Source of the DNA: Escherichia coli
GTDB taxonomy: Bacteria; Pseudomonadota; Gammaproteobacteria; Enterobacterales; Enterobacteriaceae
Assembly: GCF_003334385.1 (NCBI RefSeq)
Contig: NZ_QOWN01000084.1
Length of the DNA stretch: 4,294 nucleotides
Strand: one strand, 5' to 3'
Made by a program: the position numbers and the translations under genes. The notes beneath the pieces are model-generated. The model had not been told where the DNA came from. It did no database searches and saw nothing but the letters and a program-made list of their open reading frames with translations. Within the stretch, counting starts at the first letter, position 1; the number at the start of each line of letters is the position of its first letter. Positions 1-108 of this stretch are shown in pieces.

Positions 1-21
1 GAGGAGCAGTTATTTAGTATT
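1..21. repeat. Left copy of a 21-bp inverted repeat shared by the two window termini
   Basis: Nt 1-21 (GAGGAGCAGTTATTTAGTATT) match the reverse complement of nt 4274-4294 (TAGGATCAGTTATTTAGTATT) at 19 of 21 positions. A further 12-nt match (ATTAAGACTATC, 64-75) corresponds to the reverse complement of 4265-4276, so the left end looks like an inverted partial copy of the IS-proximal sequence interrupted by about 45 bp. Confidence 0.5.
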
Positions 22-108
22 TTTGTCGTTGATTTTCATTCTCAAGCTGCTATAGACGATGCAATTAAGACTATCCAGCACAGAAAGGATTTATCTTCTA
101 ACTGTTAA
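1..108 (+). CDS. Possible 3' end of an upstream gene (partial; enters the window in frame 1, stop TAA at 106-108); product unknown
   Basis: Frame 1 is open from nt 1 for 35 codons (EEQLFSIFVVDFHSQAAIDDAIKTIQHRKDLSSNC*), while the other two + frames hit stops within 60 nt. In AT-rich DNA this is only weakly significant. The C-terminus does not look like a pilin (no terminal aromatic beta-strand motif). The region also overlaps the inverted-repeat segment described below, so it may be non-coding. Confidence 0.2.
   Translation, partial: EEQLFSIFVVDFHSQAAIDDAIKTIQHRKDLSSNC

Follow-up and report, generated by a model that had tools for sequence, protein, structure and literature searches.

The stretch of Escherichia coli DNA analysed here (the window, 4294 nt) starts with GAGGAGCAGTTATTTAGTATT, ends with AATACTAAATAACTGATCCTA and raises the question why a fimbrial gene cluster lies between termini that are inverted copies of each other. 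By direct reading, nt 1-21 match the reverse complement of nt 4274-4294 (TAGGATCAGTTATTTAGTATT) at 19 of 21 positions, the exceptions being positions 1 and 6. A repeat search of the window lists the arms 2-21 and 4274-4293 as an inverted repeat with 95% complementarity. Further inward, reverse complementation of 4265-4276 (GATAGTCTTAAT) gives exactly the 12-mer at 64-75 (ATTAAGACTATC). A word of at least 12 nt common to both 100-nt inner flanks was found in 3 of 2000 dinucleotide shuffles (0.15%; P ~0.0015). On the left side 42 nt separate the terminal repeat from the 12-mer, with ATT at either edge (19-21 and 64-66). An earlier sequence-only reading had reported the inverted termini, the inverted 12-nt block and the ATT-edged spacer, and all three are present as described, the first two at a level that is not expected by chance.

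The flanks were followed on 15 longer contigs that carry the window DNA exactly or nearly exactly; the window equals positions 6457-10750 of contig L008, the 137-kb plasmid CP065621.1. Outside the window the inverted repeat runs on to a total of 225 nt, in which 220 of 224 positions are identical and one indel occurs. The extension proposed in the sequence-only reading thus shows that the similarity continues, and that it consists of insertion sequence (IS) DNA. Neither an end of the similarity at the window border nor a low-complexity 21-mer, two of the outcomes named there as speaking against its interpretation, was found: the repeat extends over 225 nt and is IS630. A chance match or low-complexity coincidence of AT-rich DNA could be suspected, as the window is AT-rich and its repeat search returned 83 inverted pairs. 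However, 19 of 21 matching bases exactly at both termini have a probability of ~1e-9 at a fixed position, and the continuation outside the window into a known IS already refutes this explanation, the likelihood of which we regard as negligible.

Alignment identifies the terminal repeat as the ends of two broken, oppositely oriented IS630 copies that bracket the fimbrial cluster. As reference we used a full-length 1152-bp copy (L019 761-1912). In blastn against this copy the left arm (L008 6062-6470) corresponds to IS630 741-1152 with 96.6% identity over 412 nt, and the right arm (L008 10737-10953) to IS630 1152-935 with 97.2% over 218 nt. Just the last 14 nt of each copy fall within the window. 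The features of the window are as follows.

1-14, plus strand: right-end tip (IRR) of the left IS630 copy; the remainder (IS630 741-1138) lies just outside the window.
15-16: TA target dinucleotide beside the left IS630 copy; G17 completes the right half of CTAG.
17-21, minus strand: GTATT, reverse complement of IS2 62-58; the part of the repeat that is neither IS630 nor TA.
22-63: filler of 42 nt, which together with one ATT copy forms a 45-nt extra segment; contains CTATAG at 50-55.
64-75, minus strand: ATTAAGACTATC, reverse complement of IS2 60-49.
187-930, plus strand: fimbrial periplasmic chaperone, 247 aa (Pfam PapD_N/PapD_C; FimC E=3e-24).
920-3358, plus strand: fimbrial usher, 812 aa (PapC_N/Usher/PapC_C).
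3545-4105, plus strand: fimbrial subunit, 186 aa (FimG-like, E=7e-11 in NCBIfam and 3e-5 in PDB).
4217-4280, plus strand: IS2 left end, positions 1-64 (63/64, 98.4%; blastn against an intact IS2-type copy from L002).
Within the IS2 left end: look-alike of the IS630 tip, TAAATAAGTGAT.
4265-4276: 12 nt adjoining the right repeat arm.
4278: C of the CTAG target at the right junction.
4279-4280: TA target dinucleotide (IS2 63-64) beside the right IS630 copy.
4281-4294, minus strand: tip of the right IS630 copy (IRR, consensus), which outside the window reaches IS630 935.

Genes of E. coli that match both arms are annotated in RefSeq as IS630 family transposase, and the left remnant translates into the C-terminal ~130 residues of this protein. 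Based on a comparison of target sites built on ten E. coli IS630 copies, full copies have the form TA|AATAGCTG...CAGTTATT|TA inside C-TA-G at every independent site examined. Both tips in the window likewise continue into TA-G, as visible on the inner side only. In agreement with this, a preference of IS630 for TA in CTAG is listed among the references of PMC2170065, and this article and its references describe a cut-and-paste mechanism of the Tc1/mariner type. The right copy shares the consensus tip TAGGATCAGTTATT with six other E. coli copies. The left tip (GAGGAGCAGTTATT) differs from this consensus by 2 substitutions, which suggests decay once the copy had become immobile. No match to the IS630 right-end tip came up when species-representative genomes were scanned.

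Neither arm is a complete element: the left copy starts at IS630 741, the right one extends only to 935, and both lack IRL and the N-terminus of the transposase. The two stubs differ at 4/224 positions (1.8%), 2 of them in the left tip. Of the earlier statement on the repeated IS, the part that places a related remnant upstream stands; the repeated element itself is IS630, which is nested in the IS2 end visible in the window (4217-4280).

The position of the repeat exactly at the termini probably reflects how the window was cut. The mismatch that lies furthest out between the two IS630 copies falls on window positions 1 and 4294, and the next 76 nt outward are identical. Since the window thereby ends at the outermost bases that distinguish the copies, the repeat comes to lie exactly at its termini. 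Moreover, Logan contigs (k=31) of the locus begin at a distance of exactly 30 nt (k-1) to the left of position 1. In ~180-190 index blocks the longest contig with these genes measures 2-5 kb, and contigs of 4276-4436 nt are listed. These coordinates point, circumstantially, to a repeat or assembly boundary and not to biology as the reason for the position of the repeat. The cutting artefact considered in the sequence-only reading thus holds for this narrow fact. Due to the IS debris, short-read assemblies leave the module on contigs of ~4.3 kb.

The right IS630 copy lies in an IS2 end. The IS2 fragment includes the terminal inverted repeat and ends at its CTAG (IS2 62-65), where IS630 is inserted. 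Its sole substitution is C for T at IS2 39 (window 4255). The stretch 4217-4280 is matched by more than 4,600 E. coli genomes, and the final ~80 nt of the window represent the end of a very high-copy element. On the left side, window 15-21 equals IS2 64-58 and 64-75 equals IS2 60-49. In total this amounts to 16 IS2-like nt, the same that precede IS630 on the right, here split by 45 extra nt. Hence 64-75 probably remains from another IS2 left end, in inverted orientation. A target preference of IS630 as the source of the shared TATT was considered and ruled out, because the bases past TAG vary at six other sites (GCATTT, GTCCAT, GTAAGA, GTCTAT, GGATTT and GCAAAC). We infer that the left IS630 copy was also inserted in the CTAG of an IS2 left end, which would later have been degraded. 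Against a second IS2 end stands that only 16 nt are IS2-like, that these are interrupted by 42-45 nt and that IS2 1-48 is missing.

The search for a source of the filler at 22-63 covered 5,426 complete E. coli genomes, PLSDB (blastn, E up to 1) and the surrounding 20 kb, and none was found. Its CTATAG corresponds to the product of an IS630 excision that leaves both TAs at CTAG. This resemblance to an excision scar may well be a coincidence.

Insertion of IS630-like elements at this position of IS2 is not limited to the present locus. The Klebsiella plasmid OW849273 (L001 2501-3753) carries an IS630-family element with 82% identity to the reference at the same IS2 TA. It is full length and in opposite orientation, in the order IS2 1-64, IS, IS2 63-98 with duplicated TA. 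An IS110-family (bridge-RNA type) element interrupting IS2 had been considered here, prompted by a 343-aa ORF past the Klebsiella junction; this identity was dropped, as the flanks read as IS630 family. In STEC chromosomes (72 genomes; CP027380, L028 2501-3708) an IS630-family element with 79% identity is located near nleB/nleE, again at the same IS2 TA. Altogether three IS630-family elements (97%, 82% and 79% to one reference) occupy the site that corresponds to window 4278-4281 (IS2 62-65); the three replicons are unrelated to one another, and both orientations are represented. The CTAG at IS2 62-65 is a recurrent target of the IS630 family. As two of the three nested cases were found via a junction query, we do not call it a statistical hot spot and claim no enrichment.

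The IS2 end also contains a sequence similar to the IS630 tip: window 4255-4267 (CTAAATAAGTGAT) agrees with tip plus TA (CTAAATAACTGAT, 4278-4290) at 12/13 positions. It lies 23 nt upstream of the IS630 insertion point, and the p value is roughly 0.01 or below. One of the 12/13 matches is supplied by the sole IS2 substitution of the window (C at 4255). Such a pseudo-tip was rejected as a general feature of IS630 sites, since other sites reach only 9-10/12, which is weak evidence. That the IS630 family prefers the CTAG at IS2 62-65 owing to this look-alike, and that the module was once located between two nested IS2::IS630 units, is a distinctly doubtful proposal; if true, it would mean a systematic nesting of IS630 elements in IS2 left ends.

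Taken together, it is highly probable that the terminal repeat is made up of the 14 nt at the inner end of each of two inverted IS630 remnants that are no longer active, along with TA, the G/C of CTAG and IS2-derived bases, and that the fimbrial module sits in a decayed scaffold of such elements. The following course of events would lead to this arrangement. An IS2 left end would have been inserted downstream of the fimbrial subunit gene, and the right IS630 copy would then have entered the CTAG (62-65) of that IS2 end. For the left IS630 copy the most probable target is this CTAG in another IS2 left end of inverted orientation, of which only 16 nt seemingly survived later reduction, interrupted by a 45-nt insertion. 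Subsequent IS traffic would have removed the outer parts of both IS630 copies. The left stub now adjoins another IS630-like left end and IS91 DNA, which took the place of IS630 1-740. Next to the right stub, in place of IS630 1-934, lies other DNA followed by an IS66-family element. What is left is a low-GC fimbrial module of 4.26 kb between inverted IS630 stubs of 218-412 bp.

Some further observations concern the surroundings on the plasmid. A fragment of 169 nt at L008 5893-6061 (window -563 to -395) starts with AAATAGCTGTTTAGAGCGAAGATCACTG and is similar to the left end of an IS630-family element; a stretch of plasmid NZ_CP146668 that bears no annotation (L024 1801-1974) matches it with 91% identity. 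The fragment abuts IS630 741 and thereby forms a chimera of 578 nt (L008 5893-6470). A recurrent MITE-like element was considered for this chimera and rejected, as no other complete E. coli record covers at least 80% of the query; the chimera thus appears to be a one-off scar. A gene for an AraC-family regulator (HilD/Rns-like; L008 2277-3095, minus strand) is located 3.4 kb upstream on the opposite strand. Further parts of the plasmid context, for which L008 12691-13038 and 18268-20561 are noted, are genes of microcin B17 type (McbB, YcaO), in some variants ccdAB, and IS110, IS91 and IS66 elements. This context resembles a virulence-type region in which IS debris lies between the regulator and the fimbrial genes.

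The cargo itself is a chaperone-usher module of 4.26 kb between the IS630 stubs with a GC content of 29-38%, as compared to 43-50% in the flanks. Matches of the usher to NCBIfam models reach ~1e-107 and stay under the curated cut-offs; the subunit is named 'fimbrial protein' in the source records. On the DNA level neither 5,426 complete E. coli genomes nor PLSDB match the window outside its final ~80 nt, and the subunit gave no tblastn match in PLSDB. By exact-protein look-up the three genes are found on many public contigs, including the plasmid CP065621.1, E. coli drafts and gut metagenomes; the fimbrial genes occur in ~460-510 index blocks of public assemblies.

The module begins with the chaperone; a subunit gene ahead of it and an adhesin gene are missing. 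Based on this gene order the fimbrial operon may be truncated on its 5' side. Two contigs carry the usher gene broken up into a pair of ORFs, of 140+684 aa (L009 6670-9109) and of 279+419 aa (L016 10734-13171), and the cluster is seemingly a pseudogene cluster in some strains. The 186-nt gap between usher and subunit gene contains two tandem T-rich units of 21 nt at 3434-3475 (TTATCTTTTTCTGTTGTTTTT / TTATCTCTGCTTGTTGTTTTT). Just past the subunit gene, at 4123-4146, a hairpin (AATAGGGAC-TTT-GTCCCTATT) with a run of T behind it has the appearance of an intrinsic terminator. The hairpin is absent from the output of the consensus terminator scan, and Rfam, promoter and terminator scans of the window yielded nothing relevant. 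The IS2 insertion is located ~70 nt downstream of the hairpin.

The arrangement of inverted repeats also raises the question whether the segment can invert. An inversion of the 4.26-kb segment across the 225-bp inverted repeats, by RecA or a dedicated recombinase, might switch fimbrial expression. Inverted repeats of 225 bp with 98% identity would be an adequate substrate for homologous recombination, and a gene of the Phage_integrase family is located ~4.6 kb downstream. However, this gene, the sole member of the tyrosine recombinase family nearby, has ccdAB and partition genes as neighbours, a setting known from plasmid maintenance regions. Moreover, the whole operon is inside the segment, and there is no obvious way in which flipping would separate it from a promoter. 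Phase-variable switches such as fimS and hin consist of short segments bounded by repeats of 9-30 bp, and known fimbrial switches use such repeats and not IS stubs. All 15 assembled contigs that span the segment (12 distinct long contigs and 3 from metagenomes) show the same orientation and one order (outer-left, cargo left, cargo right, outer-right), and the junction sequences are identical in all of them. A search of JGI metagenomes for an IS-free or inverted form gave three matches, all colinear with the plasmid. The invertible segment suggested in the sequence-only reading finds no support in these contigs, and we regard inversion as very improbable.

Two copies of the same IS around a cargo are also one feature of a composite transposon. 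The earlier statement that the fimbrial cluster sits between inversely oriented copies is borne out by the 225-nt inverted IS630 repeat on both sides. Intact outer IS ends and a functional transposase are missing, as the outer parts of both copies are lost. With the loss of the outer ends no target duplication around the whole unit is seen, and all 15 spanning contigs represent one context. Since the outer ends and the 5' parts of the transposase genes are gone, the unit is unable to transpose and is best described as a dead look-alike of a composite transposon. The suggested composite-transposon-like arrangement with an IS remnant upstream is therefore correct as to IS630 on both sides, but not as to a functional transposon.

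Whether the unit is what is left of a composite transposon that once worked, bounded by IS630 or IS2::IS630, in which the IS served as the vehicle that delivered the module, is a related matter. The inverted pair of the same IS around a cargo of foreign composition would fit such a relic. Sequence of apparent IS2 origin is present in both inner flanks, an outcome that the copying of one nested IS2::IS630 unit to either side would produce. Furthermore, composite transposons based on IS630 have been reported, as far as the citation of Tenzen and Ohtsubo (1991) in PMC2170065 indicates. On the other hand, no outer ends or target duplication survive, no second context with other junctions is found, and the module is absent from the complete E. 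coli genomes and PLSDB. The stubs moreover differ by 1.8%, and the left flank lacks IS2 1-48. We consider such a relic possible but unlikely. The unit can be either a composite-transposon relic or, simpler, the result of two insertions that decayed later; independent insertions of IS630 as well as a duplicated IS2::IS630 unit are both compatible with 4/224 differences between the stubs.

With the decayed IS630 scaffold as the preferred reading, the locus implies no new mechanism. It rather calls for caution: inverted termini on a short contig usually mean that the assembly or window stops inside a mobile repeat, and they are not usually a sign of a discrete mobile or invertible unit. The locus represents a rare, low-GC chaperone-usher module on E. 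coli plasmids that is embedded in debris of IS630, IS2, IS91, IS66 and IS110, which could favour loss or rearrangement of the module.

A comparison with known systems supports this classification. The arms share the terminal sequence, the 343-aa transposase gene (here C-terminal parts) and the TA-in-CTAG target with IS630 of Shigella sonnei and E. coli, and full-length E. coli copies are 96-97% identical to the stubs flanking the window. In contrast to full IS630, the arms are stubs of 412 and 218 bp, in which the left end is missing along with the larger part of the transposase gene, and the two substitutions of the left tip are absent from other IS630 copies. The IS2 left end, including the terminal inverted repeat, is identical to that of IS2 (IS3 family) at 63/64 positions. 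Compared to whole IS2 only 64 nt are left here; the insertion of IS630 at IS2 62-65 and later rearrangements would have removed the rest. With Tn5/IS50, Tn10/IS10 and the IS630 constructs of Tenzen and Ohtsubo (1991), the locus shares an inverted IS pair around foreign cargo. These systems differ from it, since outer ends, an intact transposase, a flanking duplication and a second location are all lacking here. The elements in OW849273 and CP027380 are inserted at exactly the same TA (IS2 63-64) as the right copy; they are other members of the family and full length, whereas the stubs described here are truncated. The structure is thus of a known kind, namely nested and decayed insertion sequences around an accessory gene cluster, and represents ordinary debris of mobile elements.
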